Shown one piece after another: positions 7,720 through 55,490 of a stretch of DNA of 64,000 bases. Position numbers and translations under genes: made by a program. Source of the stretch: Methanomassiliicoccaceae archaeon. Lineage in GTDB: Archaea > Thermoplasmatota > Thermoplasmata > Methanomassiliicoccales > Methanomassiliicoccaceae. The stretch's first letter is position 1. The number at the start of each line of letters is the position of its first letter. The notes under the pieces are model-generated. The model saw only the letters and a program-made list of their open reading frames with translations, had not been told where the DNA came from and made no database searches. Where the stretch lies: NCBI GenBank assembly GCA_040776945.1, contig JAXGZN010000002.1, positions 608,001 through 672,000 on the forward strand, in the 5' to 3' direction.

Positions 7720-7739
7720 TACCATATCTTCTCCAGAGC

Positions 7740-9612: not shown

Positions 9613-9742
9613 GAATGTCCATGCAACTAGCGGATATTATTCATTTCCGTCCTGGGGCAGCGTATCCCAACGGAACAATTGCTCCGCAACCTTAAAATCG
9701 CCATTTCCATAATCGTTGAAGGAAGCAAGCGAGGTCAGAAGA

Positions 9743-10294
9743 ATGTTAGAGATACGATTCCACGGACGCGGCGGGCAAGGAGCTGTCGTCGCTTCCGAGA
9801 TCCTAGCCAGGGCGGCCATGAAGGAGGGCAAGCACGCATCGGCCTTCCCGTTCTTCGGCGTGGAAAGAAGAGGAGCTCCGGTCATGGCGTTCTGCCGCAT
9901 CGATGACCGCCCCATACGCATCCACGCCGGCATCTACGAGCCGGACCACGTTGTCGTCCTGGACCATGCGCTCATGAGGTTGGTCAACGTACTGGAGGGG
10001 CATAAGGAAGGCGGCTCGCTGGTCGTGAACACCTCTCTTCCGCTGAAGGAGCTGAGTCTCCCGGAAGGACTGAGGACAGTGCTCATAGACGCAACGACCA
10101 TAGCTCTCCGAAGAGGCCTGGGCAGCGCGACCGCGCCCATAGTCAACACCGCCATCCTAGGCGCTTTCGCCAAGGCCTGCGACATAGTGTCCATAGATTC
10201 CATACTTGAGAGCATCAAGGAGTCGGCGCCGGCCAAGAAGGAACAGAACGTGGCGGCGGCCCAGGATGCCTACCGTGCCGTGGGTGGGATGTGA
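9743..10294 (+). CDS. porC: pyruvate/2-oxoacid:ferredoxin oxidoreductase gamma subunit
   Basis: MLEIRFHGRGGQG, FGVERRGAPV and NTAILGA. Confidence 0.93.
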   Translation: MLEIRFHGRGGQGAVVASEILARAAMKEGKHASAFPFFGVERRGAPVMAFCRIDDRPIRIHAGIYEPDHVVVLDHALMRLVNVLEGHKEGGSLVVNTSLPLKELSLPEGLRTVLIDATTIALRRGLGSATAPIVNTAILGAFAKACDIVSIDSILESIKESAPAKKEQNVAAAQDAYRAVGGM

Positions 10295-10569
10295 TGTACA
10301 GGACCTACAAGGATCTCCCGTCCGAACCGGTTGCGTTCCAGAGCACCGAGGACATCATGACCGGTACCTGGAGGACCATACGCCCGGTCATCGACAAGGG
10401 CAAGTGCATTCGCTGCTACATGTGCTGGAAGTTCTGCCCCGATATGAGCATGATCGTGGAGAAGGAGGGCGACTATCCATACGTCGACCTTGACCATTGC
10501 AAGGGCTGCGGGATCTGCTCCAACGAATGTCCGCGCGGGGCCATAAAGATGGAGAGGGAAACACTATGA
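10291..10569 (+). CDS. porD: 2-oxoacid:ferredoxin oxidoreductase delta subunit (2x[4Fe-4S])
   Basis: TGTWR..RP, CIRCYMCWKFCP and CKGCGICSNECP. Confidence 0.93.
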   Translation: MMYRTYKDLPSEPVAFQSTEDIMTGTWRTIRPVIDKGKCIRCYMCWKFCPDMSMIVEKEGDYPYVDLDHCKGCGICSNECPRGAIKMERETL

Positions 10570-11747
10570 TCGACATGATGAACGCAAACCACGCCGCCGC
10601 GATCGCCGCCAAGCTCGCGCGGGTGGACGTCACCGCTGTTTATCCCATCACCCCGCAAACGTCCATCTCTGAAAAGCTAGCGGAGATGGTCCAGAAGGGC
10701 GAGATGGACGCCAAGTTCCTCACCGTGGAGAGCGAACACTCCGCCATGTCCGTGCTGATCGGCGCTTCGTATGCCGGGGCGCGTACTTTCACTGCGACCT
10801 CCTCTCACGGCCTTGCGCTCATGCACGAGATGCTGATGTGGGCCGTCGGTGCGCGGAGGCCCATCGTAATGCCGGTCGCCGCCCGCACCATCGGCGCCCC
10901 TTGGAACATCTGGGGAGAGCATCAGGACGTCATCACCGAGCGGGACACAGGCTGGCTGCAGATCTTCTGCGAGAACAACCAAGAGGTCCTTGACACCGTT
11001 CTGATGGCCTACCGCGTGGCCGAAGACCCCGAGGTCATGCTCCCGATCATGGTGGTCGAGGACGGCTTCATAATGTCGCACACCGTGGACATAGTGGACG
11101 TGCCCGAGCAGGATAGGGTGGACCGCTACCTACCGCCGTTCAGGCCCAAGTATCCCATTGACGTCAACAATCCCATGCGCCACGGCGGTCTCGTGATGCC
11201 GGACTGGTGGACCGAGTTCCGCTATCTGATCCACCTGAGCCAGGAGGCCGCGCGGACCAAGCTGGTCGAGGCGGAGAAGGCCTTCGAGGAGGAGTTCGGC
11301 CGCAGCTACGGCGGCCTTATGGAGTACTACCAGTGCGAGGACGCCGATGCCATATTGGTGATCGCCGGCTCCGCCGCCGGCACCGCCAAGGAGGTGGCCG
11401 ACCGCTTCCGCTCCGAGGGAAAGAAGGTCGGCGTGGCAAAGCTGCGCGTGTTCCGCCCATTCCCGGCCAAGGAGGTCCGGAGACTGAGCGAGATGACCTC
11501 CACCATAGGGGTCTTCGACCGGTCCTACACCTTCGGGGACGGCGGGGCCATGTTCAACGAGGTGCGGTCCGCCCTGCAGCCAGGAGACTCGATGGTCAAG
11601 AATTACGTCGGGGGGTTGGGCGGACGCGATGTGACGGTGAAGTACATCGAGTGGATCTTCGAGGATCTCCTGAAGATCTCCGCGGCAGGCAAGGTCGACC
11701 GCGTGGTCGAGTGGGTCGGCCTTAAGGACGGAACCGGGAGGTGGTAG
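10566..11747 (+). CDS. porA: 2-oxoacid:ferredoxin oxidoreductase alpha subunit
   Basis: YPITPQT, ESEHSA, TATSSHG and GLGGRD; ATGA overlap with the delta stop. Confidence 0.93.
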   Translation: MIDMMNANHAAAIAAKLARVDVTAVYPITPQTSISEKLAEMVQKGEMDAKFLTVESEHSAMSVLIGASYAGARTFTATSSHGLALMHEMLMWAVGARRPIVMPVAARTIGAPWNIWGEHQDVITERDTGWLQIFCENNQEVLDTVLMAYRVAEDPEVMLPIMVVEDGFIMSHTVDIVDVPEQDRVDRYLPPFRPKYPIDVNNPMRHGGLVMPDWWTEFRYLIHLSQEAARTKLVEAEKAFEEEFGRSYGGLMEYYQCEDADAILVIAGSAAGTAKEVADRFRSEGKKVGVAKLRVFRPFPAKEVRRLSEMTSTIGVFDRSYTFGDGGAMFNEVRSALQPGDSMVKNYVGGLGGRDVTVKYIEWIFEDLLKISAAGKVDRVVEWVGLKDGTGRW

Positions 11748-11748
11748 C

Positions 11749-12666
11749 ATGGAGAGCCCGACATCTATCAAGAGATACAAGCTGACGATACCTCACGAGG
11801 AATACATCTACCCTGGCCACAGCACCTGTCCGGGCTGCGGCGAGCCGCTGGCGCTGCGCTACCTCCTGAAGGCGCTGGGGCCCAACACGGTCCTCAACGT
11901 CCCCGCGGGATGCGGCGCGGTCATGCCCGGAGTGTGGCCTCGCTACGCGATCAAGGTCCCTTTCGTGGACCATGCCTTCGAGTGCACCGCGGCAGTGTCC
12001 TCCGGCATCAAGGCCGCTCTGGAGAAAAAGGGAAGGGACGACATCACCGTGGTAGGCTGGGCCGGAGACGGCGGCACCGTGGACATCGGGCTCCAAGCAC
12101 TGTCCGGCGCGGTGGACCGTAACACCGACATCCTGTACGTGATGTACGACAACGAGGCGTACATGAACACCGGGATACAGTGCTCCGGCTCCACCCCCTG
12201 CGGGGCGTGGACCACCACAACCCCGGGAGGAAGGAACGTGAAGCAGCGTCAGGGGAAGAAGAGGATCCTCGAGATGATGATCGCCAACGGCATAGTGTTC
12301 GGAGCGACCGTTTCCGTGGCCTACCCCGATGACTTCATCAGAACAATCCGCAAGGCCAAGGACATCAAGGGCCCCAGGTTCATCCATGCATACACGCCAT
12401 GTCCCTCGGGATGGAGGATGGACCCCCGGAAGGCGATCGAGGTCTCGAGGCTGGCGGTCCGCACAGGGGCCTTCCCCCTATACGAATATCACAACGGGAA
12501 GTACAAGTTCACCAAAGAGATTAAGAAGAGGAAGCCGGTTGAAGAATATCTTCGCCTCCAGGGGAGGTTCAGGCACCTGACCCCCGCTGACGTGGCCGAG
12601 GTCCAGGCCCTTGTCGATCGCGAGTACAAGGAGCTGGTGGCCAAGGTGGGGGCGGGCGGACGGTGA
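11749..12666 (+). CDS. porB: 2-oxoacid:ferredoxin oxidoreductase beta (TPP-binding) subunit
   Basis: CPGCG, GDGGT..IG...YDNEAYMNTG and PCPSGW. Confidence 0.93.
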   Translation: MESPTSIKRYKLTIPHEEYIYPGHSTCPGCGEPLALRYLLKALGPNTVLNVPAGCGAVMPGVWPRYAIKVPFVDHAFECTAAVSSGIKAALEKKGRDDITVVGWAGDGGTVDIGLQALSGAVDRNTDILYVMYDNEAYMNTGIQCSGSTPCGAWTTTTPGGRNVKQRQGKKRILEMMIANGIVFGATVSVAYPDDFIRTIRKAKDIKGPRFIHAYTPCPSGWRMDPRKAIEVSRLAVRTGAFPLYEYHNGKYKFTKEIKKRKPVEEYLRLQGRFRHLTPADVAEVQALVDREYKELVAKVGAGGR

Positions 12667-12670
12667 CCGG

Positions 12671-14485
12671 TTGGACAAGCTGCTGGAGAATAGCGGGAGG
12701 CTCCTCCTGCTGGGTAACGAGGCTATAGCTAGAGGTCTGATTGAGGCAGGGGTCGGGGTCGCTACCACCTACCCGGGCACGCCCTCCTCGGAGGTGGGGG
12801 GCATACTCGAGAACATCGCCGCGGATGCTGGGATGTACTTCGAGTACTCAATTAACGAGAAGGTAGCTCTCGAGGTCGCCGGGGCCGCCGCAGCTTCCGG
12901 GGTGCGTTCCTTCGCGTTCATGAAGCACGTTGGACTCAACGTCGCCAGCGACGCGTTCATGACCCTCTCCTATACCGGCGTCAGGGCCGGCATGGTCATA
13001 ATGTCCGCCGACGACCCCTCCTGCCACTCCTCACAGAACGAGCAGGACAACCGCTTCTACGCCAAGCTCGGACTTTACCCCATGATGGAGCCGTCCACGC
13101 CGGCGGAGGCGAGGGATATGCTGGTGGAGGCTTTCCGCATCTCCGAGACCCTGGGCGCGCCGGTGCTGTTCCGCACCACCACCCGAGTGAACCACGCGCG
13201 AGGCGCGGTGGAGCTCCGCCCCGCGCCGAACCCTGTCCGCAGGTCCAATTTCGAGAAGGACCCCCAGAGGTTCGTTACCGTTCCCGCCAACGCCCGCCTC
13301 GGCCGGCTGGAGCAGCTTAAAAGGATGGACAAGGCGCTGAAGCTCTCTGAGGCCTCGAAGCTGAACTTCGTGGTCGGCAACTCCCGCGTGGGGGTCATCA
13401 CCAGCGGGGTCACCTATACATATGCCAGAGAGTGGCTGGATGACGTGGAGATCCTAAAGCTCGGGTTCACCAACCCGGTGCCGGAGGATATGGTCCGCCG
13501 CTTCCTCAAGGGCAAGCAGCGCGTGGTGGTATTGGAGGAGCTGGAGCCGTACCTCGAGGACGAGGTGCGGCGGATCGCCCAGCAGGCCGGGATCGATATC
13601 GAGATACTGGGCAAACGCACCGGGCACCTTCCCCGGGCGTTCGAGTACTCGCCTGACCTCATCCTTTCGCTCGGCTCCGTACTAAAGGTCAGGCCGGAGA
13701 GGACGCCCCTGCCTTCGGTGCCCTTGAAGCTGCCTCCCCGTCCGCCGGTGCTGTGCGCAGGCTGCCCCCACCGCTCTACCTATTACGCGGTGAAGAAGGC
13801 GGTGGGCAAGGATGGCGCGATCTACTCGACCGACATTGGGTGCTACACCTTGGGCGTCCAGCCGCCGATGCAGTGTGCCGACTTCGTGCTGTGCATGGGC
13901 TCCTCCGTCGGCGCCGCGGGAGGCTTCGTAGAAGCGACCGACCAGAAGGTCGTGGCGTTCATCGGCGATTCGACGTTCTTCCATGCCGGCATTCCGGGGC
14001 TGATCAACGCGGTTTACAACCGGCACAACTACACGCTTGTCATCCTCGACAACCGCACCACGGCCATGACCGGCCACCAGCCCAATCCGGGCGTGGGGCG
14101 CGATTATTGCGGCATCGAGACCATAGGTCTGCCGATCGAGCCTCTGGTCCGAGCGTGCGGCGTCGAGCACGTGCGGACGGTCGACCCGTACGACCTGAAG
14201 GCGACAATCGAGGTGATGAAGGAAGCCGTCGAATACAGCGGGCTCTCGGTGGTCATCTCCGAGCATCCCTGCCCTCTCGCGGTCAGGAAGGAAGGCAAGC
14301 TCGCCCCGGTGAAGTACGCTATAGACCAGGAGAAGTGCATCAGGTGCTACACCTGCGTCTCCAAGTACTCCTGCCCGGCCCTCAGCAAGGAGGGCGGCAT
14401 GGTGAGCATAGACCTCTCGCTGTGCATCGGATGCGGGTGCTGCGCGCAGGTATGCCCCAAGCAGGCCATCGAGGTGGTCCAGTGA
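12671..14485 (+). CDS. iorA: indolepyruvate:ferredoxin oxidoreductase alpha subunit
   Basis: LGNEAIARG, YPGTPSSE, KHVGLNVA, SSQNEQD, LCAGCPH, IGDSTFFH and a C-terminal ferredoxin; TTG start inferred. Confidence 0.94.
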   Translation: MDKLLENSGRLLLLGNEAIARGLIEAGVGVATTYPGTPSSEVGGILENIAADAGMYFEYSINEKVALEVAGAAAASGVRSFAFMKHVGLNVASDAFMTLSYTGVRAGMVIMSADDPSCHSSQNEQDNRFYAKLGLYPMMEPSTPAEARDMLVEAFRISETLGAPVLFRTTTRVNHARGAVELRPAPNPVRRSNFEKDPQRFVTVPANARLGRLEQLKRMDKALKLSEASKLNFVVGNSRVGVITSGVTYTYAREWLDDVEILKLGFTNPVPEDMVRRFLKGKQRVVVLEELEPYLEDEVRRIAQQAGIDIEILGKRTGHLPRAFEYSPDLILSLGSVLKVRPERTPLPSVPLKLPPRPPVLCAGCPHRSTYYAVKKAVGKDGAIYSTDIGCYTLGVQPPMQCADFVLCMGSSVGAAGGFVEATDQKVVAFIGDSTFFHAGIPGLINAVYNRHNYTLVILDNRTTAMTGHQPNPGVGRDYCGIETIGLPIEPLVRACGVEHVRTVDPYDLKATIEVMKEAVEYSGLSVVISEHPCPLAVRKEGKLAPVKYAIDQEKCIRCYTCVSKYSCPALSKEGGMVSIDLSLCIGCGCCAQVCPKQAIEVVQ

Positions 14486-42943: not shown

Positions 42944-45064
42944 TCAGCCTATGATGTTGCGGTGGCGGTCCCTTAGCTCTCCCATCTTGCCCTTGTTCCA
43001 GCCCCTGGTCTTGGAGAAGAAGCCAGTAACGCGGGTGATGCCTTCGATGTCCGGGGACCCGCAGAACGTGCAGGCCTCATGGAGGCCCCTGGTGGTGCGT
43101 CCGCAGCTCAGGCAGGATGTGAACTCCGGCGAGAACGCGATCTGAGCGTTCTGAGTGTTCTGGAAGGTCTTGATGACGAAGGCCGCGATGCTCTCCGCCG
43201 GCGGCTTGGACTCCCCAAGCCAGACGTGAGTTAGCGAGCCTGCATCGATCAGGGGGTGGAACAGTCCTTCCTGCTTGACCCTCTCGATCGCCGAGATGTC
43301 CGCCCCGACGTTCAGGTAGGTCGAGTTGGTGTAATAGACCTCTCCAGAGGACTTGTTGCCCTTGATGACGGTGGCCGACTGCAGCGGATAGTACTTCATG
43401 TCCAGCTTGGCGAAGCGGTACGCGGTCGATTCGGCCGGTGTCTGCTCCAGAGGCATCTTGAGCCCGAACTCCTCGCCGATGCGCTCAGACTCGGTCTTCA
43501 TGTAGCTTATGACCTTAAGGCCGAACTTGAGGGCCTCCTTGGATTCATGCATCTCCTTTCCCGTATGGTATTGGACCAGCTCGTTGAGGCCGACCATTCC
43601 CACCAGGAATGAGGACTTGTTTATGCGATAGTAGGTCTCCCCATCCATGTTCATGGTCAGCAGGGACAGCGGACCATTCTTGCCCATGTTGAACAGCTGG
43701 GTGATGAACTCCCTCTTAAGGATGTGGGCCTGGGCCACCATCTCGATGCGCTTGGTCAGCAGCTCGAACAGCCGGGCATCGTTCTGATGGGCATCGTAGG
43801 CCACCCTCGGGAGGTTGATGGTAACGTTCTGCATGGCGCTGTAGCGCATCTTCCAAGGTGTCTTGGCGTCATCCAGATCGCTCTGTTCCAGCTTGAAGGT
43901 GAGGCGGCAGCACTCTGAAATCTTGGCGGTGCCGCCGCGGTCGAACACAAAGTAGGTGTTGCCCTTCTCGGAGGCGACCTTGCAGATCTTATTGAGGAAC
44001 TCCTCGTGACCCTCGGTCTTGAAGAACTTCTCGGTCATGTGCACGTTCGGCTTCGGGAAGAAGAACGGCCGCCCCATGGCGTCACCCTCGAGGTACACGT
44101 CGAAAAGCGCGTTGACGAACCTCTGCGCTTCCGGCAGGTAATCCTCATAGTTCTTACCGGTGAACTTGCCCTCCGGACCTATGGCCGGAACTCCCATGAA
44201 GTGGTCGGGGCATTCCCAGTACAGGTTAAGGTCGCTGAATATGGATTGCCCGCCACGAGCGACGGCCTGCTGCGCGAACTCGTATATCAGGATCTGGGCG
44301 ATCTGCTTCATCCTCTTGTCGTCCACGTCCACAAGGTAAGGGGCAAGGAACAGGTTGAAGGCGTCCCATCCAATGGCCCCGGAGAAGTGCCCTTGCAGGG
44401 CGGCGGAGAACTTTATTATCTGCTCTATCAGCACCTCGGGATGCCTTGCGGGCTTCGCTATTGAGAGCGCGTTGGGCAGATTGAGCCCGAACTTCTTCAC
44501 GTACTCGATGCTTTGTCCCGAGCAGTAAGGGCGGTCTACCATTCCTAGGTCGTGCAGATGAATATCGCCGCGCATATGCGCATCTGCAAGGTCCTGGGAA
44601 AAGACCTCGAGCAGGGCGAACTCCTTCTTGATGTTCTCTGCGAGCGTGAGATTGGTGGCCTCAGGACCGTGGGGGACGTTGGCGTTCTCCTTGTTCGGAG
44701 ACATGATGATCTGCCGGGCATCGTAGAGAGGGACCCCCAGGCGGGTGTGTTGTTTCCTTATCTTAGAAAGTCCGTACTCGACGAGCTTCGCGTTCGTAAG
44801 CTCCCTTATCAGGGGAGCGGTGATCATATCGATCTCAAGCTCCGAGATCATCTTCTCGACCTCGCGGGAGATGATCGCCGCGGCGTCCTCGCTGATCGTG
44901 GTCTCCCTTATCAGCGCATCATATATCTTGGAGCGGTCCCACTTCTTAAGCTCCTCGTCGGAAGTCCTGACGAATAAGGTCAGCTCGGTCGATTCCTTGT
45001 CACCGTATATGTCCGTGGCTCCCGCCATAGGATCAGATGCCTTCATGATATCACACTTACCCAT
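42944..45064 (-). CDS. nrdD: anaerobic (class III) ribonucleoside-triphosphate reductase with ATP cone
   Basis: ATP cone (VRTS...WDRSKI), HLHDL..PYC, ECCRL finger loop, TPAES, YYTNS, CxxC/CxxC and the RVTGF glycyl motif; start may be 45046. Confidence 0.95.
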   Translation of the reverse strand: MGKCDIMKASDPMAGATDIYGDKESTELTLFVRTSDEELKKWDRSKIYDALIRETTISEDAAAIISREVEKMISELEIDMITAPLIRELTNAKLVEYGLSKIRKQHTRLGVPLYDARQIIMSPNKENANVPHGPEATNLTLAENIKKEFALLEVFSQDLADAHMRGDIHLHDLGMVDRPYCSGQSIEYVKKFGLNLPNALSIAKPARHPEVLIEQIIKFSAALQGHFSGAIGWDAFNLFLAPYLVDVDDKRMKQIAQILIYEFAQQAVARGGQSIFSDLNLYWECPDHFMGVPAIGPEGKFTGKNYEDYLPEAQRFVNALFDVYLEGDAMGRPFFFPKPNVHMTEKFFKTEGHEEFLNKICKVASEKGNTYFVFDRGGTAKISECCRLTFKLEQSDLDDAKTPWKMRYSAMQNVTINLPRVAYDAHQNDARLFELLTKRIEMVAQAHILKREFITQLFNMGKNGPLSLLTMNMDGETYYRINKSSFLVGMVGLNELVQYHTGKEMHESKEALKFGLKVISYMKTESERIGEEFGLKMPLEQTPAESTAYRFAKLDMKYYPLQSATVIKGNKSSGEVYYTNSTYLNVGADISAIERVKQEGLFHPLIDAGSLTHVWLGESKPPAESIAAFVIKTFQNTQNAQIAFSPEFTSCLSCGRTTRGLHEACTFCGSPDIEGITRVTGFFSKTRGWNKGKMGELRDRHRNIIG

Positions 45065-46239: not shown

Positions 46240-47238
46240 ATGGACCTACAAGCGCTGGCAGATGGCATAAGGAACTACCCGGGCGTTACCCGGAAAAGGA
46301 CCATCTCCGAGGTCATCAGCTTCTTTCCGCTCATCCCCAACAATAACGTCCTGGCGGCCTATGGCGAAGATGCCGCGGTCATCAAGTTCAATGATGATGT
46401 CCTCCTGCTTGCAGCCGACGGGATCATGGAGTCCCTGATGAAGGTAGCTCCGTTCTATGCAGGCTACTATGCCGTGCTTGTGAACCTGAACGATATCTCG
46501 GCCATGGGAGGGATCCCGCTGGCCCTGGTCGACATAATCTCCATGAAGGACGAGAAGGTATGCGCCCAGGTGATGAGAGGGGTCGAGGAGGCAGTGGAGA
46601 AGTTCGGGGTCCCGATCGTAGGTGGACACACCCATCCTGATTGCGAGTACAACGCCATCGACGTCGCCGTTCTCGGCACCGCCCGGCAGGACAACGTCAT
46701 TTACTCACACACCGCTCAAGAGGGGGACGACATTGTCTTCGCTATGGACCTTGACGGCTTTTTCCCCAGCTCCCTGCCGTTCGCCTGGGATACCACGACC
46801 AAGAAGGACGCCGCTACCTGCCGGAGGCAGATGCTCATAATGAACGAGATCGGGAAGAGACGCCTGGCCCGATCGGGAAAGGACATCAGCAACCCTGGCA
46901 GCATCGGCACCCTGGGCATGCTGCTGGAAACCAGCGGAAAGGGCGGGACCGTGGACATCGGGGCCATCCCTCGGCCGGACAACGTCGATCTATCGCAGTG
47001 GATAAAGGCCTATCAAGGCTGCGGCTTCGCCCTTACCTGCGATCCCAGCCATTCACTGGCGATCGAGCAGCTGTTCGCCACCGTCGGGGTCACCGCGGCG
47101 GTGGTTGGCCGCGTCGACGGCACCCGGCGCCTCACCATCAGAGAGGGGAAGGATAGCGTGGTCGTGTTCGACTTTGCATCCGATAAGATAACCGGTTGCG
47201 ATCCGAGCAGGGTGCCCGCTAGAGGAAAGAAGCGCTAG
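46240..47238 (+). CDS. AIR-synthase-related protein (methanogenesis marker 2-like)
   Basis: G.TRK..I, GEDAAV, AADGI, VNLNDISAMGG, GGHTHPD and KDISNPG..GTLGMLLE. Confidence 0.85.
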   Translation: MDLQALADGIRNYPGVTRKRTISEVISFFPLIPNNNVLAAYGEDAAVIKFNDDVLLLAADGIMESLMKVAPFYAGYYAVLVNLNDISAMGGIPLALVDIISMKDEKVCAQVMRGVEEAVEKFGVPIVGGHTHPDCEYNAIDVAVLGTARQDNVIYSHTAQEGDDIVFAMDLDGFFPSSLPFAWDTTTKKDAATCRRQMLIMNEIGKRRLARSGKDISNPGSIGTLGMLLETSGKGGTVDIGAIPRPDNVDLSQWIKAYQGCGFALTCDPSHSLAIEQLFATVGVTAAVVGRVDGTRRLTIREGKDSVVVFDFASDKITGCDPSRVPARGKKR

Positions 47239-47543
47239 GCCACGAGGGTAGCCGCTCGGATCGGCGCGAGTGATCCTGCCAGCTTCTCAGCCCCGCTCCC
47301 CTTTGAGCGTTAGTAGTCCACGGTAAGGCTGCTCCCGTCAGGGCCTGACCCGTTCTCCATGACTATGACCGGGCATGCGACCCTCCGATCGCACCTCCCG
47401 GCCGCCTCCAACCCCATAGGACAGGGCCTCATTGTTGTTGTCAGGGCCCGCGCCTTTCCGGTTACGGCGTCCCCCGCTGTCACCCCCGCTGTCGACGTCT
47501 GCGGTGTAAAAGGGCGTGCCGAACGTCCCGGTCGAGCCTAGCC
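47234..47543 (-). ncRNA. ffs: archaeal SRP (7S) RNA
   Basis: 5' GCTAGGC pairs with 3' GCCTAGC; helix 6 GTGCGATC-GGAG-GGTCGCAT; helix 8 GGTCAGGCCC-TGAC-GGGAGCAGCC; about 310 nt; TATA-like AATAAATA upstream. Confidence 0.93.
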
Positions 47544-47649: not shown

Positions 47650-47931
47650 TCAGAACCTCTTTGGAGAGGTCCGCTCCCCTCCACGGGTGCAGTAGTGATG
47701 CCCTCGGAACCCAAGCTCGGAATGGACCGGGCACTTCCCGCATATGCACTTCAGCTCCCTGGTCACGCAGTCCGGGGAACGGCCGTAGAAGCAGAACAGC
47801 TTCTCCTCCCTCTCCTTGGCGCACTCGGTGTAGGTAGGGCACTTCGGGCAGGGGCACTTCGATCTCATGGCCGCTATCTCGGCCTTGCGCTTGTCGGGGG
47901 TCATCCGGTTCAGCTCATCAAGGCTGGGCAT
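47650..47931 (-). CDS. DUF2769-like Cys-rich protein
   Basis: C.C..CPTY..C.....LFC..G.S..C.....C.C..CPV....G....YC. Confidence 0.85.
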   Translation of the reverse strand: MPSLDELNRMTPDKRKAEIAAMRSKCPCPKCPTYTECAKEREEKLFCFYGRSPDCVTRELKCICGKCPVHSELGFRGHHYCTRGGERTSPKRF

Positions 47932-48046
47932 GTTCGATATGAACGCTTGCCAACGATATCAATCATTGCGACATCGGCATCGATCACGGCCTAACGCGCT
48001 CATGATGGGATTATTATGAAGGCCCGTCCAAGCACGTTCAAGGGCG

Positions 48047-48349
48047 CTACCGTCCGCCCTTCCGGACCTCCGACTCAGTGCCCTTGGTGCAGTAGTAGAG
48101 ATGGCCAAGCCCTGCCCTGTTGGCCACCGGGCAGTCCATCAGGCAGAAGCACCCAAGGTCCTCGGAGGTGATGCATTCCTTGCTCCGCCCTAGGAAGCAG
48201 TACAACAGCTCTCCCGCCGCCTCGGCACAATTGTTGTATGTCGGGCAGTCCGGGCATATGCACTCCGAGCTGAGATCCTTGACCGCCTTCTCCCTCTCCG
48301 CTCCGGTCTTGGAGTCCAGATCGCTCTGCATCTTCTCGTAGGCGTCCAC
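48047..48349 (-). CDS. DUF2769-like Cys-rich protein (tandem paralog)
   Basis: Same Cys pattern as 47650..47931. Confidence 0.85.
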   Translation of the reverse strand: MDAYEKMQSDLDSKTGAEREKAVKDLSSECICPDCPTYNNCAEAAGELLYCFLGRSKECITSEDLGCFCLMDCPVANRAGLGHLYYCTKGTESEVRKGGR

Positions 48350-48458: not shown

Positions 48459-49337
48459 ATGGTCGTCGGAGGAAAGCCCGAGTGGCTAAAGATCAGGGCT
48501 CCCACGGGAGACGGCTTTACCAGGTTGAGGGACCTGGCGACGAGGAGCGGCATAAATACCGTCTGCGATTCGTCCCACTGCCCCAATATTTCTGAATGCT
48601 GGTCACGGGGCCATCTGACGTTCATGGTCCTCGGCCGGACATGCACCAGGGCCTGTTCCTTCTGCGCAGTGGAACACGGCGTCCCTGAGAACGTCGATCC
48701 CCTGGAGCCGGAGCGCATAGGGGCCGCGGTCAGGGAACTGGGCCTAAGCCATGCGGTGGTCACCTCGGTGACCCGGGACGATCTTCCGGACCAAGGGTCC
48801 CAGCATTTCCGAGACGTTACGGAGGCCATCCGGCGCCTTAGCCCTGGAACCACCATCGAACTGCTGGTCCCGGACATGCGGTCATCGAAGAAGGACCTCC
48901 GGGTAGTGGCCGAGGCCCGGCCTGAGGTGCTGAGCCATAACATAGAGACGGTGGAGCGGCTGCAGCGGATAAGGGACCGCCGGTGCAGCTACCGCACCTC
49001 GCTCGAAACGCTGTCGTTCTTGAGGAGAGCGGCCCCCGGCGCGGTGATAAAGAGCTCGCTGATGCTGGGTGTCGGGGAGACCCCGGAAGAGGTGTTGATG
49101 ACCCTGCGGGACCTCCGGGACGCGGGGGTGGGGGCGGTAACGATGGGGCAGTACCTGAGGCCCCGGGGCGGCACCCTCCAGGTGGCCGAGTACGTCAGAC
49201 CCGAGGTCTTCTCCGAGCTGGGGGAGGCCGCGAGGTCCCTGGGGTTCGAGCACGTGGCATCGGCGCCCCTGGTCCGTTCATCATATAAGGCCAAGGAAGC
49301 ATTATCGGGCAGGAGGAACCACCATGCTGACCGATGA
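48459..49337 (+). CDS. lipA: lipoyl synthase
   Basis: KPEWLK, CX4CX5C (CDSSHCPNISEC), CX3CX2C (CTRACSFC), HNIETV and VRSSY. Confidence 0.96.
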   Translation: MVVGGKPEWLKIRAPTGDGFTRLRDLATRSGINTVCDSSHCPNISECWSRGHLTFMVLGRTCTRACSFCAVEHGVPENVDPLEPERIGAAVRELGLSHAVVTSVTRDDLPDQGSQHFRDVTEAIRRLSPGTTIELLVPDMRSSKKDLRVVAEARPEVLSHNIETVERLQRIRDRRCSYRTSLETLSFLRRAAPGAVIKSSLMLGVGETPEEVLMTLRDLRDAGVGAVTMGQYLRPRGGTLQVAEYVRPEVFSELGEAARSLGFEHVASAPLVRSSYKAKEALSGRRNHHADR

Positions 49338-50412
49338 CTACGACCCTCACCGGGGAAGGATGCTGAAGGTGCTCGACCAGAACGGGAAAGTAGTGGAGAA
49401 GGCCCTCGAGCCGAAGCTCGACGATTCGGTGCTGGAGAGAGCATACCGCACCATGGTGCTCTCCAGAGCGGCGGACGAGAAGGCGGTCATCCTCCAGCGG
49501 CAGGGCCGCCTGGGAGCGTATCCGCCCAATCACGGCCAGGAGGCGGCGTCCATGGGCCCGGCGATGGCGCTGGAGGAAGGGGATTGGCTCGTATGGGCGT
49601 TCCGTGAGCTGGCAGGACTGCTGTGGAAGGGCCTTCCTCTGCTGAACTATTATCTATATTGGATGGGGAACGAGGAGGGTAGCCGCTACCCGCCAGGGCT
49701 TAACATCACTCCGGCCTCGATACCGGTGGCGTCCCAGATGCCCATCTCGGTCGGCATCGCCTACGCCTCGGCGCTGCGCTCGGAGAACAGGGTCACCCTG
49801 GCCTTTTGCGGCGACGGGGGGACATCAGAGGGCGATTTCCACGAGGCCATGAACGTTTCAGGCGTTCTCCGCACGCCCAATGTGTTCGTGGTCCAGAACA
49901 ACCAATGGGCCATTTCCGTTCCCAGGAGCAGGCAGACCGCAGCGCCCACGATCGCCCAGAAGGCCTGCGCCTATGGCCTCAAGGGCATCCAGGTGGATGG
50001 GAACGACCTGTTGGCCATGTATATCGCTACCAAGGAGGCGGCGGAGCGCGCGAGGAGAGGCGAGGGCCCAACGCTGATCGAGGCGTACACCTATCGGATG
50101 GGGAACCACACCACCTCGGACGACGCGAGGAAATACCGCCTGGAGAGCGAAGCGAAGGGATGGGAGCTGCGGGACCCCATCTCCCGGCTCAAGGCGTACC
50201 TGATCTCCCGCGGATCGCTGGACGATGACCGGGAGAAGCAGGTTTGGAGCGATGCAAGAGAGGCCGTGGAGAAGGCGGTGGCAGAGGCGGAAGGCTTCCC
50301 GCCACCGGCCCTGGAGGACGTTTTCCAATACACCTACGCGGAGATGCCTTCGGAGCTGAAGACGGAGATGGACAGGCTGCGTGCCGAGCTGAGGGACGGT
50401 GATAAGGGATGA
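49324..50412 (+). CDS. pdhA: 2-oxoacid dehydrogenase E1 alpha
   Basis: LQRQGR, GQEA, GDGGTSEGDFHEAMN...QNNQWAIS and YRMGNHTTSDD. Confidence 0.94.
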   Translation: MLTDDYDPHRGRMLKVLDQNGKVVEKALEPKLDDSVLERAYRTMVLSRAADEKAVILQRQGRLGAYPPNHGQEAASMGPAMALEEGDWLVWAFRELAGLLWKGLPLLNYYLYWMGNEEGSRYPPGLNITPASIPVASQMPISVGIAYASALRSENRVTLAFCGDGGTSEGDFHEAMNVSGVLRTPNVFVVQNNQWAISVPRSRQTAAPTIAQKACAYGLKGIQVDGNDLLAMYIATKEAAERARRGEGPTLIEAYTYRMGNHTTSDDARKYRLESEAKGWELRDPISRLKAYLISRGSLDDDREKQVWSDAREAVEKAVAEAEGFPPPALEDVFQYTYAEMPSELKTEMDRLRAELRDGDKG

Positions 50413-51386
50413 GCGAGATGAACATGGTCTCCGCCCTGAACTCAGCCCTGGCAAACCTGATGGAGGAGGACCCATCGGTCGTGTTGCTGGGAGAGGACGT
50501 GGGGAAGGACGGCGGGGTGTTCCGCGTGACCGAGGGACTGTTCGACCGCTTCGGCGGGAACAGGGTCATCGATACGCCGCTCGCTGAGGCGGCCATCGCC
50601 GGCATGGCGATCGGGATGGCCCTCAACGGCCTCAGGCCGGTGGCGGAGATACAGTTCATGGGTTTCTCCTACCTCACGCTCAACCAGATGATATCCCATG
50701 CTTCCAGGCTCCGGAACCGTTCCCGGGGAAGGTTCACCGTGCCCATGGTCATGCGGACCCCGTACGGCGCCGGCGTCAAGGCCTTGGAGCACCACTCCGA
50801 GAGCACCGAGTCTCTGTACGTTCAGATACCAGGGCTGAAGGTGGTGGTGCCTTCCTCCCCGAGAGAGGCCAAGGGATTGCTCATCTCCGCGGTGCGGGAC
50901 CCTGACCCCGTGGTGTTCCTCGAACCCACCCGTTCCTACCGGCTGTTCAAGGAGGAGGTTGAGGGCACCTCGTTCTCCATCCCCCTGGGACGCGCCAGAA
51001 CGGTGCAGCCGGGCAGCGACGTGACGGTCGTGGGCTGGGGCGCGATGATGCCGCTCATCGCGAAGGCGGCGGAGGCCGCCGGCTCAGAGGGGATAAGCTG
51101 CGAGGTGATCGACCTGAGGACGCTCTCGCCTATGGACAGCGCCGCGGTGGTGAACTCTGTGCGCAGGACCGGGCGCTGCGTCATCGTCCAAGAGGCCCCC
51201 AGGACCTGCGGCGTGGCGGCGGAGCTGATCGCCCGGATCAACGAGGAGGCCCTTCTCTCCCTCGAGGCGCCGGTGGTGCGGGTCACCGCCCCGGACATCG
51301 TGGTGCCGCTCCCCCAGGGAGAGCATTATTATTATCTCAACGCGAACAGGATATACGACGCGGTGAAGAGGGTCGCGGCGTTCTAG
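50409..51386 (+). CDS. pdhB: 2-oxoacid dehydrogenase E1 beta
   Basis: GEDVG..GGVFR.T, DTPLAE, EIQF, EHHSES and IDLRTLSP. Confidence 0.94.
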   Translation: MSEMNMVSALNSALANLMEEDPSVVLLGEDVGKDGGVFRVTEGLFDRFGGNRVIDTPLAEAAIAGMAIGMALNGLRPVAEIQFMGFSYLTLNQMISHASRLRNRSRGRFTVPMVMRTPYGAGVKALEHHSESTESLYVQIPGLKVVVPSSPREAKGLLISAVRDPDPVVFLEPTRSYRLFKEEVEGTSFSIPLGRARTVQPGSDVTVVGWGAMMPLIAKAAEAAGSEGISCEVIDLRTLSPMDSAAVVNSVRRTGRCVIVQEAPRTCGVAAELIARINEEALLSLEAPVVRVTAPDIVVPLPQGEHYYYLNANRIYDAVKRVAAF

Positions 51387-51396
51387 GTGATGAAAG

Positions 51397-52632
51397 ATGG
51401 CGAAGGAGTTCAAGTTCCCTGACCTCGGAGAAGGTGTTACCGAGGGCGAGATCAAGAAGTGGCTGATAAAGGTCGGAGACACGGTCACGAAGGACCAATC
51501 GATCGCCGAGGTGGAGACCGACAAGGCGGTAGTGGAGATGCCCTCGCCATATTCAGGCAAGGTCTTGAAGCTGAACCATCCGGAGGGCGGCATAGTGAAT
51601 GTCGGCGAGGTGCTGGCGGTGATCGGCGAAGAGGATGCAATGGAGGAGCAGGCCGAGCCTCCGCCGTCAACGTCGGTGGTCGGCGAGCTCCCGGAGGCGG
51701 AGACCGAGGTGGTCACCGCCCGGACGTCCGCCGGACCGCCGATCCAGGCCGTTCCCGCCGTTCGAAAACTGGCCAGGGACCTCGGCGTCGACATCGCCGG
51801 CGTGAAGGGCACTGGCCCTGAGGGCAGGATCACCGAGGAGGATGTCCGCAAGGCCGCCGCGCCGGCCGCGAAAGGGGCGGCGCCGGGGTCCGCGGAACCG
51901 AGGATGAGGGCCAAGTTCGACATCTACGGCCGGATCGAGGCGAGGCCCCTCCGAGGGGTCAGGCGTTCGACCGCAAGGCACATGATGGAAGCAAGGTCCA
52001 GCGCCGCTCTCGTCACCACCATGGAGATCGCTGACGTGACCGATCTGGTCGCCCTCAGGAACAAGGTGAACGCCTACGCCCAGGGGTCCAAGGGATTGAA
52101 GCTTACCTTCCTGCCGTTCATCATGAAGGCCGTCATAGCGAGCCTGAGGAAGCACCCCTACATGAACTCCTCCATGGACGAGGAGGCCGAAGAGATAATC
52201 ATCAAGGACTATTACAATCTGGGAATAGCGGTGGCAACCGAGGACGGTCTCCTGGTCCCGGTGGTCAAGGCTGCCGACCAGAAGAGCATCTTCGAACTGG
52301 GCAAAGAGATCAAGGAGCTCGCGGAGGCGGCACAGAGCCGGAAGATCGACCTCGCCGACCTGAAGGGTGGAACGTTCTCCATCACCAACTATGGGGTCTT
52401 CGGAGGGACCTATGCCACTCCCATACCCAACTACCCGGAGGCGGCGATCCTCGGCTTGGGCCGCATTCAGGACGCGCCGATGGTCCACGAGGGAGCGGTG
52501 GTGCCTCGCAAGGTGCTGCACCTGTCCCTGACGTTCGACCACCGGATCATGGACGGGGCGCAGGCGGCCACCTTCCTCACCGACCTGAGGGACTTTCTAG
52601 AACGGCCCGAGCTGATGCTGCTGGACCTCTAG
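51397..52632 (+). CDS. pdhC: dihydrolipoamide acyltransferase E2 (one lipoyl domain)
   Basis: PDLGEG, ETDKA lipoyl Lys, peripheral-subunit-binding domain PAVRKLA...GTGPEGRI and catalytic DHRIMDG. Confidence 0.95.
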   Translation: MAKEFKFPDLGEGVTEGEIKKWLIKVGDTVTKDQSIAEVETDKAVVEMPSPYSGKVLKLNHPEGGIVNVGEVLAVIGEEDAMEEQAEPPPSTSVVGELPEAETEVVTARTSAGPPIQAVPAVRKLARDLGVDIAGVKGTGPEGRITEEDVRKAAAPAAKGAAPGSAEPRMRAKFDIYGRIEARPLRGVRRSTARHMMEARSSAALVTTMEIADVTDLVALRNKVNAYAQGSKGLKLTFLPFIMKAVIASLRKHPYMNSSMDEEAEEIIIKDYYNLGIAVATEDGLLVPVVKAADQKSIFELGKEIKELAEAAQSRKIDLADLKGGTFSITNYGVFGGTYATPIPNYPEAAILGLGRIQDAPMVHEGAVVPRKVLHLSLTFDHRIMDGAQAATFLTDLRDFLERPELMLLDL

Positions 52633-53375
52633 CGGGAGAAGGTCCAGGCCGGGTCCTCGTACCGCGCGCGCGACAGCTCCGAGGCCCTCGCGGACTCGGC
52701 GGCGGTGAGAGGCGATCCCGAGCACTCCTTTCCCCGGCAGAAAGCGGCCTGCAGGCTGGCAAGGAGGTCGCCCGCGCCGCATCCGGTGAGCGAGCGCACC
52801 GAGGTCACTCTGTCCCAGGGGTGCGACAGGGCCTTGTCCGATAGCTTGACCGGATCCACCTTGAGCACCGAGAACATCTTCGCGCTGTCGACATCGTACA
52901 GCACCGTGCCGTGCTGGAGAAAGACCCCTTGCCTGCGGGTCTGAGCGCAACCCGATATTTTGCGGCCTCCGGCCAAGATGTCGTTGATCGGAGCGAACTC
53001 CGAGGCTATCCCGAGATCGGCCAACGCCGCGATGACCCAACCGCAGACCTCCCGGTACGAGGCGAGGATGTCCGCCCCCATCATCGGCTCGGGCGCGATC
53101 ACGCTGTATGTGATCTCCCCGGAGCTGTCATGGTATACCGCCCCTCCGCCGGTGCGCCGGCGGACCACATCCACCCCCATGCGGGCGCAGGCCTCCAGGT
53201 CCACCTCGTCCTGGACCCTCTGAAACCTGCCGATGCTTACCGCCGACGGCCGCCAGGCATAGAACCTGATGGTCGGGGGAGCGTTGCCTAGGCCGACCGC
53301 TTCGGCCACCGCCTCGTCCACGGCCATGTTCACCGAGGCCCGGTGGCCGGTGAACGGCAGCAGGCGCCACCTCAC
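52629..53375 (-). CDS. lplA: lipoate-protein ligase catalytic subunit
   Basis: NMAVDE, RRRTGGGAVYHD, NDI...RKISG.AQ and QHGT. Confidence 0.93.
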   Translation of the reverse strand: MRWRLLPFTGHRASVNMAVDEAVAEAVGLGNAPPTIRFYAWRPSAVSIGRFQRVQDEVDLEACARMGVDVVRRRTGGGAVYHDSSGEITYSVIAPEPMMGADILASYREVCGWVIAALADLGIASEFAPINDILAGGRKISGCAQTRRQGVFLQHGTVLYDVDSAKMFSVLKVDPVKLSDKALSHPWDRVTSVRSLTGCGAGDLLASLQAAFCRGKECSGSPLTAAESARASELSRARYEDPAWTFSR

Positions 53376-53656
53376 TCCAGGGCCTCCCTGATCAGACCGG
53401 CGAGGTCAGGAGACTCGAAGCCGATGGCCACTATGCCGCGCTCCTTCAGTACCCTATCGATCAAAATGGAGATGTCCTTCGAGGCCGTGCTCAGCGGCAG
53501 GCCCGCCAGCGCTTCCTCGACGATATCGATGGCCTCCTCCGGATGCATGAAGAAGTCCCCGGATACCTCCGCCCGGACGATGACCGCTCCATCGTGCTCC
53601 AGGCGGACCGAGAGCATCTTGCCCCCGGCGATCTTCCGTCGGGCGGAGGCTTCCAA
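53372..53656 (-). CDS. lplB: lipoate-protein ligase accessory subunit (stand-alone LplA C-terminal domain)
   Basis: K..GGK...V...GDFFMHPEEAI..EE.L; overlaps the lplA start. Confidence 0.88.
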   Translation of the reverse strand: MEASARRKIAGGKMLSVRLEHDGAVIVRAEVSGDFFMHPEEAIDIVEEALAGLPLSTASKDISILIDRVLKERGIVAIGFESPDLAGLIREALE

Positions 53657-53659
53657 CGC

Positions 53660-53965
53660 TCACTCCTTGGCCAGGTCCAGGATCTGCTGCTTGGTGGTCC
53701 TCATCCCGCAGAGCGCCTTCTTGGTCCTCTCGTTGTACAGGGATGGCACGCCCAGCGAGCCTCCGCATGCCCTTTTAAGGACGTCCCCGTAGGACCGCAT
53801 GAGCTTTGCGTTCTCATCGGAGTGCCATACCTCGAGCTGGGTGATCCCCTGCCCGCCTGCCTTGACCAGCTCCTCGCTCACCTCGTCGACCACCGGGTGA
53901 AGCTTGGCGCAGTGGGGGCATTCGCGACCCCAGAAGAATATCAGTCTGCCGCCTTGTTCCGACAT
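53660..53965 (-). CDS. thioredoxin/glutaredoxin-like protein
   Basis: FWGRECPHC, cis-Pro motif GVPS and extra Cys residues (ACG, LCG). Confidence 0.88.
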   Translation of the reverse strand: MSEQGGRLIFFWGRECPHCAKLHPVVDEVSEELVKAGGQGITQLEVWHSDENAKLMRSYGDVLKRACGGSLGVPSLYNERTKKALCGMRTTKQQILDLAKE

Positions 53966-53966
53966 G

Positions 53967-54395
53967 TCATTTCCTCCCTACGAACAGGCCGCACCAGCAT
54001 TCCCCGGTCTCCCTGTAAACAGGCTGTATGAAGAAGTTGCAGGGGCAGATGAGGTCGAGGTCCTCCTCCAGGTTCCCGGTCGTGATCCTGCAGGGACAGT
54101 ACTTCAGGCCATGGTTCCTCTGGTTCTCCAGCTCACCCCTGGCCAGCGTCTTGACGAACTCGGCGTCGGGGTTCAGCCTGAACGGTTTGCCTTCGGCGAA
54201 CCTCTCCCAGACCTCCAAGAGCTGATCGACCTGGTCCAGGCGGTCCCCTCGGTCTATGATGACCTTCTTCGCTTCCGGATAGTCGATCAGCATGAACGCG
54301 TTCTTCGCGCCGCAGGTGGGGCAGACCTCCGGCCCCTTAATGCCATAATGGATGTCGTTGCACACGTTGCAACGCCAGAGCTTCTTCACGGCCAT
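53967..54395 (-). CDS. rubredoxin-like domain fused to ferredoxin:thioredoxin (disulfide) reductase catalytic domain
   Basis: N-terminal WRCNVC...PEVCPTC; C-terminal LNPD...YCPCR...CPC...GECWCGLF. Confidence 0.9.
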   Translation of the reverse strand: MAVKKLWRCNVCNDIHYGIKGPEVCPTCGAKNAFMLIDYPEAKKVIIDRGDRLDQVDQLLEVWERFAEGKPFRLNPDAEFVKTLARGELENQRNHGLKYCPCRITTGNLEEDLDLICPCNFFIQPVYRETGECWCGLFVGRK

Positions 54396-54854: not shown

Positions 54855-55388
54855 TCAGAGCTTCTTCAGCACCGGGCCCGGGGTCCTGAACTCGCCGTCC
54901 CAGTAAAGGAGGACGTTGGACCTGTCGTAGTTCTTGGCCACATCAGTGTGGACGACCTTGCCCATGTACCATATGTGGTCCCAGTCCCCACGGTCGATCT
55001 GCTCGAGCTTCTTTACCTCGATGTTCAGAGGGCACTCGGCGATGCTTGGCGACCTGATCCGCTTGCCCGGCTCGGGGGTCAGCCCTATCTCGGAGAACTT
55101 GTTCAGCCTGCTGCCGGAATGGTGCCCGCAGCGAACGACGTGGTCCAGTATATCCTTTCCCGGCACGTTCAGGGAGAAATCGTCGGTTTCCTCCAGCAGC
55201 TTATAGCTGTATCTGGATGACCTGATCCCTATGCCCACGATGGTGGGGTCAACCGAGAACACGTTGAACATCCCTATGGTGGTTACGTTCTGCTCCTTCT
55301 CTCCCACTGCCAGGAGCATCACCGGGGCGGGTGGCAACTGCATTACCGCTTCGATCGCTCCCATGTCTAGCTTAATGTCCTCCGTCAT
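54855..55388 (-). CDS. flavin reductase-like (FMN-binding split barrel) protein
   Basis: P.PV, FSLNVP, CG..SG...KF, PSIAECP..IE and DH....G.V. Confidence 0.88.
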   Translation of the reverse strand: MTEDIKLDMGAIEAVMQLPPAPVMLLAVGEKEQNVTTIGMFNVFSVDPTIVGIGIRSSRYSYKLLEETDDFSLNVPGKDILDHVVRCGHHSGSRLNKFSEIGLTPEPGKRIRSPSIAECPLNIEVKKLEQIDRGDWDHIWYMGKVVHTDVAKNYDRSNVLLYWDGEFRTPGPVLKKL

Positions 55389-55490
55389 TGAGACACCGTA
55401 CTTCAATCGACGGCCGGCATTATAATAGCGTCTCCTAACGGGTGAGGGCCCGAGCGCGATCTAATTCCTCCCCGGTTTATCAGGGGCAGC

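Follow-up and report, generated by a model that had tools for sequence, protein, structure and literature searches.

A 64,000-nucleotide stretch of the 2.17-Mb genome of a Methanomassiliicoccaceae archaeon (G000:C2:608001-672000; hereafter the window, whose numbering is used for all positions given without a contig or locus) carries the genes of a 2-oxoacid dehydrogenase that lacks a dihydrolipoamide dehydrogenase (E3) of its own. Genes for lipoyl synthase LipA, the two E1 subunits and the E2 acyltransferase form one operon, which converges on a second operon encoding the two lipoate-protein ligase subunits LplA and LplB, a CPHC thioredoxin-fold protein (the Trx-like protein, Trx in gene orders) and RdFTR, in which a rubredoxin-like domain precedes the catalytic domain of a ferredoxin:thioredoxin reductase (FTR). 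The link of these E3-less E1-E2 genes to the RdFTR/Trx-like pair is real, old and cross-domain. A survey of gene-neighbourhood co-occurrence of the kind suggested in the original prediction, which was made from the sequence of the window, found the linkage across five families of the order Methanomassiliicoccales and far beyond it, in four arrangements. We hypothesize that the Trx-like protein exchanges electrons with lipoyl-E2 and that RdFTR serves the same Trx-like protein, a reading to which we give an even chance.

Genes were identified from a list of open reading frames (ORFs) together with Pfam and NCBIfam profiles, with bit scores set against the family cut-offs (Table 1), and all eight genes named in the original prediction were confirmed at its coordinates. 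The plus-strand operon is as tight as had been described, with overlaps of 14 nt between lipA and E1alpha and of 4 nt between E1alpha and E1beta and a gap of 10 nt between E1beta and E2, and it ends with the E2 gene and no E3. On the minus strand, gaps of 1 nt (RdFTR/Trx) and 3 nt (Trx/LplB) are followed by a 4-nt overlap of LplB and LplA, and the two operons share 4 nt at their stop codons (52629-52632), which agrees with the short gaps (no more than 3 nt) and overlapping stops noted earlier. The catalytic motifs, said to be intact, can indeed be read in the translations: CX4CX5C, CX3CX2C and RSSY in LipA, GDG...N in E1alpha, ETDKA and DHRxxDG in E2, and CPC/CPC/CWC plus two CxxC pairs in RdFTR, which we take to be the characteristic motifs of these proteins. 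The peripheral-subunit-binding domain of E2 is intact as well. The machinery for lipoylation is present, LipA scoring above its NCBIfam cut-offs and LplA and LplB both being recognised, and a second LplA lies at C1:285763. A search of the whole genome for Pyr_redox_dim gave two matches, both outside the window, so no E3 is found within it, again as predicted.

Table 1. Features of the locus and its surroundings (window positions), followed by related operons in family f24 (positions in their own contigs).
Feature	Position	Strand	Evidence and remarks
Lipoyl synthase LipA	48459..49337	+	NCBIfam NF004019 361 bits, TIGR00510 316 bits, both above cut-off
E1 alpha subunit, thiamine diphosphate (ThDP)-binding	49324..50412	+	Pfam E1_dh 285 bits; TIGR03181 455 bits (cut-off 411)
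E1 beta subunit	50409..51386	+	Pfam Transket_pyr 161 bits, Transketolase_C 126 bits; NF006667 298 bits (below cut-off 321)
E2 acyltransferase	51397..52632	+	Pfam Biotin_lipoyl 81 bits, E3_binding (peripheral-subunit-binding, PSBD) 62 bits, 2-oxoacid_dh 284 bits
LplA, lipoate-protein ligase large subunit	52629..53375	-	Pfam LplA-B_cat 171 bits; best NCBIfam NF053750/NF053751 ~200 bits, below cut-offs
LplB, lipoate-protein ligase small subunit	53372..53656	-	NF053749 53.5 bits (cut-off 65); Pfam Lip_prot_lig_C 20 bits, below cut-off; position conserved in the order
CPHC thioredoxin-fold protein (Trx-like), 101 residues	53660..53965	-	Alignment, model, Foldseek; sub-threshold thioredoxin profile matches only
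RdFTR: N-terminal rubredoxin-like domain + FTR catalytic domain (ferredoxin:disulfide reductase type)	53967..54395	-	Pfam FeThRed_B 63 bits, RUBY_RBDX 33 bits
DUF2769 cysteine-rich small protein, copy b	47650..47931	-	Pfam PF10967, 63 bits; possible accessory part
DUF2769 cysteine-rich small protein, copy a, divergent from lipA	48047..48349	-	Pfam PF10967, 60 bits; possible accessory part
NrdD, class III ribonucleotide reductase	42944-45064	-	TIGR02487, 421 bits; ~9 kb from the redox pair
Methanogenesis marker 2	46240-47238	+	TIGR03267, 400 bits
Archaeal signal recognition particle (SRP) RNA gene, between the marker-2 gene and the DUF2769 pair	47233-47543	-	Rfam RF01857, 146 bits
Flavin-reductase-like gene, upstream of RdFTR	54855-55406	-	PF01613; place conserved in family f1
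LpdL-glutaredoxin-like-FDR operons of family f24 (FDR, ferredoxin:disulfide reductase)	L067:9134-11319 (-); L081:9613-11778 (-); G322:C39:5580-7516		LpdL 40-42% identity; glutaredoxin-like 89-97 aa; FDR with C-terminal rubredoxin domain

To follow the linkage through the order, the same sample of 151 genomes was used for every query. E2 matches were obtained in 68 genomes, 63 of which were counted as real; dropped were a 96-residue fragment holding TGA (G108) and the matches in four genomes of genus g2, which cover the catalytic half only, at 35-37% identity. The RdFTR query matched in 91 genomes, about 75 of them covering the protein at 40% identity or more and the others confined to the rubredoxin part or to a paralogous FTR domain, while the Trx-like profile matched in 77, NrdD in 95 and the glycine cleavage protein GcvH in 96. 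Both RdFTR and the Trx-like protein occur in 61 of the 63 E2 genomes, and in the two misses (G044, 78% complete, and G130, 64%) the E2 gene lies on a short contig. E2 identity runs from 58 to 79% across five families, and every one of the 15 E2 loci fetched (families f1, f2, f3, f4 and f6) has lipA-E1a-E1b-E2 converging on LplA-LplB-Trx-RdFTR. Family f7 (64 genomes) is almost entirely without E2, the LpdL type of flavoprotein described below, RdFTR and the Trx-like protein. In genus g2, where no E1, RdFTR or LpdL was found, the Trx-like gene stands convergent with, and about 10 bp from, the ORF of about 205 residues that accounts for the partial E2 matches (G006:C1:1100059-1100907, and likewise G011:C6, G016:C5 and G025:C6); this ORF may be an E2 remnant or a stand-alone acyltransferase.

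Beyond the order, a sample of 301 genomes of the phylum Thermoplasmatota provided 20 E2 loci for examination. Twelve are canonical operons in which E3 adjoins E2 (families f8, f10, f16, f30, f31, f34 and f38, including L093, from a genome of 1,564,906 bp in the same class), and all 12 are without a Trx-like gene within about 8 kb. All six loci of families f27 and f33 read Trx-like-E1alpha-E1beta-E2 with no adjacent E3, four of them with a convergent LplA; their E2s are the closest to the window E2 (46-50% identity), and the genomes carry LpdL and an FDR-type gene elsewhere. Two loci (L102, L103) are of neither type.

When species-representative genomes were scanned with the Trx-like alignment, 382 relatives came up, and the loci of the best 80 of these 382 were counted. 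RdFTR adjoins the Trx-like gene in all 80. Of these loci, 61 have E1/E2 genes no more than 6 kb away, 8 have too little flanking sequence to decide, and 11 have a flank of at least 2.5 kb that is free of E1/E2. The 61 linked loci comprise 48 arranged as in the window, 4 convergent ones without LplBA and 9 on one strand (L172 doubtful). Among 14 bacterial loci, 8 read RdFTR-Trx-E1alpha-E1beta-E2 on one strand (Aminicenantes, Eubacteriales and unclassified bacteria), a compact operon with unrelated genes on either side; at L174, for example, the five genes overlap or nearly abut and are followed by a convergent panD-panC-panB. The 4 convergent loci without LplBA come from metagenome-assembled genomes (MAGs) labelled 'Bathyarchaeota' (L133, L136, L141 and L150), in which RdFTR-Trx converges on E2-E1b-E1a. 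The E2s of these MAGs nest inside the Methanomassiliicoccales clade, through either transfer or a wrong label.

In the E2 tree a single clade (SH-aLRT 99) unites all 29 Trx-linked E2s, the window E2 among them, and the 12 E2s from operons with an E3 fall outside it. The association arose once and survived several rearrangements and a cross-domain transfer. To see what the redox pair might act on, the cysteines of E1alpha, E1beta and E2 were compared between 27 sets from Trx-linked loci and 12 from E3 operons. None of the three subunits has a cysteine position whose conservation is specific to the Trx-linked clade, and E2 has none that reaches 50% conservation. A regulatory disulfide in the enzymes is thus unlikely, and the lipoyl group, the sole dithiol that E1-E2 conserve, is the likely Trx target; we infer that it is the most plausible contact point of the Trx-like protein.

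The Trx-like protein defines a distinct family of its own. It lacks the WCGPC motif and scores below the gathering threshold of the Pfam Thioredoxin profile PF00085 (18.9 against 23.5 bits). In the predicted structure (pLDDT 86), whose top Foldseek matches are thioredoxins (TMq 0.6-0.69), it has a thioredoxin fold in which the CxxC starts helix 1 and V73-P74 form the cis-Pro loop. The family alignment shows invariant residues F11, G13, E15, C16, C19, EVWH 45-48, N52, VP 73-74, N78, C86 and G87; the active site is CPHC (ECPHC) in 76 of the 80 loci, with CPPC, CDHC or CEGC in f27/f33. Among 1.84 billion representatives the family comprises 257 clusters at E <=1e-10, and named homologues come from Methanomassiliicoccus luminyensis (76% identity) and Methanomassiliicoccus sp., which, together with the methanogenesis marker 2 gene near the cluster, places the archaeon in the genus Methanomassiliicoccus. 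Its neighbour RdFTR matches the FTR profile PF02943 at 63 bits (cut-off 22), its FTR cysteines CPC...CPC...CxC align with those of 4tpu and 7pwe, and its rubredoxin-like domain matches PF21349 at 33 bits. The nearest solved structure is 4tpu (Methanosarcina acetivorans FDR, 3.8e-23), in which the domain order is reversed; the form with the N-terminal rubredoxin-like domain is covered in 78 of the 80 loci. From these similarities RdFTR is predicted to be a ferredoxin-dependent disulfide reductase.

In the mechanism we propose, the locus would encode a special 2-oxoacid dehydrogenase, composed of E1alpha-beta and a lipoylated E2 made together with the cofactor genes lipA and lplAB and without E3, and its partners would be a dedicated CPHC thioredoxin-fold protein and the iron-sulfur disulfide reductase RdFTR. 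E1 would decarboxylate a 2-oxoacid and reductively acylate the lipoyl arm, E2 would move the acyl group to CoA, and dithiol-disulfide exchange with the Trx-like protein would re-oxidise the dihydrolipoyl arm. RdFTR would tie the same Trx-like protein to ferredoxin, so that this protein could act as a hub charged by reduced ferredoxin or by 2-oxoacids and pass electrons on to thiol-dependent acceptors. Work on thioredoxin active-site variants suggests that the CPHC motif could make the Trx-like protein more oxidising than lipoamide. Reverse operation, in which ferredoxin would drive 2-oxoacid synthesis via lipoyl, was also considered. This had been raised in the original prediction as a flow from ferredoxin through FDR and Trx to the lipoyl group, and we reject it on energetic grounds, the E1+E2 half-reaction lying at about -39 kJ/mol in the forward direction.

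Several observations weigh against this reading, those on E3 given further below included. In all five E2-less genomes of the order that were examined (G010, G039, G078, G053 and G024), lipA-E1-E2 and LplAB have been lost while Trx-RdFTR stay in place, so RdFTR-Trx appear as the stable core and the dehydrogenase as its dispensable partner, and the pair is not dedicated to the complex; GcvH is kept in four of the five genomes and the second LplA in all five. The bacterial loci L169, L175 and L176 likewise read SecA-IMPDH-RdFTR-Trx followed by panDCB, the same site without E1-E2. None of the 10 longer homologues of the Trx-like protein that were scanned has the domain fused to E1, E2 or FTR; only thioredoxin-type domains were seen. 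The single E2 clade implies that the four arrangements came about by reshuffling in a single lineage, not independently. As for the electron acceptor, passing dihydrolipoyl electrons to ferredoxin is thermodynamically unfavourable, and an obligatory role of ferredoxin in taking them up is judged unlikely, the midpoint potentials being about -290 mV for lipoamide and about -420 mV for ferredoxin.

On the side of the proposed reading, metatranscriptome contigs at least 99% identical to the window cover both operons in three sludge runs (three study codes), and part of them in a digester run, with incomplete cover (a gap, for example, at 47948-48221), and they bridge the LplB/Trx/RdFTR, E1a/E1b and E1b/E2 junctions. 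The cluster has a contig depth of 2-14, the SRP RNA one of 2,600-10,500 (about 1000 times as much) and the flavin-reductase-like gene one of about 60 (about 5-10 times as much). The far greater depth of the SRP RNA than of its neighbours indicates that the libraries do reflect RNA; the contigs give neither strand nor expression level, however, and with DNA carry-over possible, transcription at such low depth is unproven.

Further opposing points concern E3. One of the two Pyr_redox_dim proteins of the genome is CoA-disulfide-reductase-like and has a single cysteine. The other, which we call LpdL (474 aa, G000:C2:945504-946925), lies 285 kb from the cluster and is the only class-I flavoprotein disulfide reductase of the genome. 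It falls below every curated dihydrolipoyl-dehydrogenase cut-off (NF004947, 556 against 592 bits; TIGR01350, 303.5 against 408.8), and among solved structures it comes closest to mycothione reductases (1e-84), with true LpdA at about 1e-50. For calibration, 11 E3s encoded directly after E2 in other Thermoplasmatota were compared with 26 LpdL orthologues. The operonic E3s, all 11 of them, share GxGPGGY..AAIR, HPT and a Glu that closes the second strand (beta2) of the NAD fold; GSGAGxN, IHPA and, in place of the beta2-end Glu, (Q/G)(R/H)N..R are found in every one of the 26 LpdLs. The residue at the end of beta2 sets coenzyme choice in glutathione reductase and lipoamide dehydrogenase, and the LpdL motif points to an NADPH-type rather than an NAD-type nucleotide site. 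In the tree LpdL forms one clade (SH-aLRT 98, stem length 1.5) apart from the operonic E3s, with which it shares 25-31% identity. The genome thus has an E3 homologue but no canonical E3: of the expectation that no lpdA would be found genome-wide, the part concerning a canonical lpdA held by cut-offs, motifs and clade, whereas a homologue is present.

That homologue opens the way to an ordinary complex with E3 acting in trans. LpdL in archaea and an orphan Lpd in bacteria, shared with glycine cleavage, would then regenerate the lipoyl arm, and RdFTR and the Trx-like protein would be accessory, maintaining the complex or its lipoyl group or regulating it according to the redox state of ferredoxin, and would not carry catalytic flux. 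Bacteria commonly have an unlinked lpd gene that serves more than one complex. The LpdL query matched in 89 genomes of the order, 79 of them at 46% identity or more, and LpdL is present in 62 of the 63 E2-bearing genomes (the only miss, G126, is 59% complete) and in all 11 E2-bearing f27/f33 genomes of the phylum sample. It keeps the CxxxxC pair and the His-Glu dyad, C51, C56, H451 and E456 being invariant in 29 sequences. The genome also carries GcvH, GcvT and GcvP, scattered at G000:C2:157788-158141, C1:691371-692189 and C1:973919-975223, and the glycine cleavage system normally needs an L protein. An orphan canonical-type Lpd occurs in 7 of the 8 bacterial genomes that carry the operon, and all 8 have GcvH and no E2 other than the Trx-linked one. 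E2 retains its subunit-binding domain too, although in E1alpha-beta-type complexes this domain also binds E1, so its retention need not imply E3.

The same proteins also argue the other way. LpdL belongs to a separate clade with an NADPH-type motif, closest to mycothione reductases, and it is found in 17 genomes of the order without a detected E2, 7 of them at least 94% complete. Conversely, the 12 genomes of genera g2 and g23 have GcvH and no LpdL. In the Thermoplasmatota family f24, where 34 of 35 sampled genomes lack E2, three genomes carry an LpdL-glutaredoxin-like-FDR operon (Table 1), which fits LpdL as an NADPH-dependent reductase of a redoxin or of a small disulfide. The regulatory variant of E3 in trans also has no conserved E1/E2 cysteine pair that could act as the disulfide. 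Gene context gives no clue, the LpdL and GcvH genes of the genome both being orphans among unrelated neighbours; no LpdL-like match lies in any of the 80 related loci, and at the 8 loci examined the bacterial Lpd has neither E1 nor E2 nor GcvH within 6-7 kb. A structure prediction that paired an LpdL dimer with the subunit-binding domain of E2 scored 0.00 in a run without controls and is used neither for nor against binding. On balance we regard supply of E3 in trans, with the redox pair in an accessory role, as possible and somewhat unlikely.

How far the Trx-like protein could stand in for E3 follows from the same evidence. In the original prediction a thioredoxin/FDR relay was to replace E3. 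The Trx-like protein as a redox partner of lipoyl-E2 is favoured by the linkage, by the absence of Trx genes from the 12 E3 operons and by the cysteine comparison; full replacement is disfavoured by LpdL, by the orphan Lpd, by the persistence of the pair without E1-E2 and by the ferredoxin energetics, and we consider it doubtful, with LpdL possibly acting as an additional E3. A broader form of the idea would make RdFTR and the Trx-like protein the third component of an NAD-independent class of 2-oxoacid dehydrogenases in strict anaerobes of both domains. There, dihydrolipoyl-E2 would be re-oxidised solely via the Trx-like protein, RdFTR would hand the electrons on, via its [4Fe-4S] and rubredoxin centres, to a ferredoxin-like carrier (perhaps the linked DUF2769 protein) or to thiol-dependent reductases, and LpdL and the orphan Lpd would do other tasks; this we hold only tentatively and think unlikely.

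Two further observations concern LpdL and its relatives. According to one review, 'E3' homologues of haloarchaea may be bis-gamma-glutamylcystine reductases (PMC7278568). Three LpdL orthologues of the order sample (G051:C48:6760-8178, G005:C1:76958-78349 and G035:C59:195480-196874) contain one in-frame TAG each, which might reflect pyrrolysine read-through, sequencing error or decay. The mycothione-reductase-like LpdL clade should not be annotated as dihydrolipoyl dehydrogenase.

A different explanation detaches the redox pair from the dehydrogenase altogether: RdFTR and the Trx-like protein would form a general ferredoxin-dependent thiol-reducing system, for instance for NrdD, encoded 9 kb away, and their proximity to the dehydrogenase would be inherited synteny. 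Synteny of NrdD, marker 2, [lipoyl cluster], Trx, RdFTR and HisD does extend through the order, Trx-RdFTR lie 2-4 kb from NrdD where the lipoyl cluster has been lost, and Table 1 of PMC9176816 lists a glutaredoxin-like NrdH as the reductant of NrdD3. Yet loci outside the order show the linkage to E1-E2 again, with their genes arranged differently, no NrdD match was seen in the 14 bacterial loci, and the RdFTR, Trx, E1a and E1b genes of the bacterial operons overlap one another or almost touch. Genus g23, moreover, has NrdD in 8 of 8 genomes, the Trx-like protein in none of the 8 and a full RdFTR in none. We therefore consider this explanation improbable. That the genes of the dehydrogenase have become inactive remnants, in a methanogen relying on ferredoxin oxidoreductases, is highly improbable: such pyruvate:ferredoxin-oxidoreductase-type genes do occur, as predicted (at about 10605-13228; five POR_N matches in the genome, two of which fall in the window), repeated losses of the cluster have taken place in the order and copies in the relatives G066, G114 and G128 are frameshifted, but the frames here are open, domain scores strong and motifs intact, E2 identity has been kept over five families, lipA and lplAB are co-retained and the region is present in metatranscriptome contigs.

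Next to the dehydrogenase operon stands a tandem pair of DUF2769 genes, divergent from lipA, whose products have about 10 cysteines in about 60 residues each. DUF2769 homologues adjoin lipA in family f1 and lie just upstream of RdFTR in five bacterial loci (L169, L171, L178, L182 and L183). In the literature searched, the family is mentioned just once in passing, in a study of small proteins of Methanosarcina mazei that gives no function. DUF2769 proteins might bind metal and carry electrons for the module.

The textbook 2-oxoacid dehydrogenase complex consists of E1, E2 and E3, depends on NAD+ and belongs mostly to aerobic life. Compared with the Thermoplasma-type E1alpha-E1beta-E2-E3 operon, the module has homologous E1alpha, E1beta and E2 (about 40% identity for E2 and about 50% for E1beta against L093), the same E2 domain order and the same kind of LipA and bipartite LplA/LplB ligase; it differs in that no E3 follows E2, in its separate E2 clade, and in the linked Trx-like gene, mostly together with RdFTR. 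By analogy, the module most likely works like the Lpd-DlaT-AhpD-AhpC peroxidase of Mycobacterium tuberculosis, with which it shares the idea of a lipoylated E2 that reduces a thioredoxin-like adaptor: in that bacterium, reduced lipoate on E2 is reported to power the thioredoxin-like AhpD, and E1-dependent ketoacid decarboxylation can generate the reduced E2 (PMC12995895). Here, by contrast, the adaptor is a thioredoxin-fold CPHC protein with no AhpD match in the searches made, is encoded in or beside the E1-E2 operon and is paired with an iron-sulfur ferredoxin:disulfide reductase, with no peroxiredoxin linked and no canonical E3.

Another lipoyl system of a strict anaerobe with a small CxxC/U redox protein in its operon is the glycine decarboxylase/PrpU system of Eubacterium acidaminophilum, which is described as being without dihydrolipoamide dehydrogenase and as having, in the glycine decarboxylase operon, a CxxU redox protein proposed to act with the thioredoxin system (PMC4056300). 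Unlike the module here, it has the H protein of glycine cleavage in place of E2 and a flavoprotein reductase in place of an FTR-type iron-sulfur enzyme. RdFTR itself resembles the FDR of Methanosarcina acetivorans and M. barkeri and the catalytic subunit of plant-type FTR in its FeThRed_B domain, six cysteines (CPC...CPC...CxC) and rubredoxin-like domain, and FDR is reported to reduce atypical thioredoxins (PMC6262447). Unlike FDR 4tpu, with its C-terminal rubredoxin, RdFTR has the rubredoxin at its N-terminus and stands beside a CPHC Trx-like gene at every one of the 80 loci, usually beside E1-E2. No description of the module was found in the literature searched, a search that left subscription journals mostly outside.

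The role of 2-oxoacid dehydrogenase genes in strict anaerobes, methanogens included, has so far been unclear. If the reading proposed here is true, the operonic E3 has been swapped for a Trx-like protein and an iron-sulfur reductase, and the lipoyl arm would feed the thiol redox network directly, as with AhpD in M. tuberculosis, or the complex would run without NAD. The module offers testable partners in the form of five small soluble proteins, and it points to an undescribed way in which electrons of this classic complex may be handled in anaerobes.

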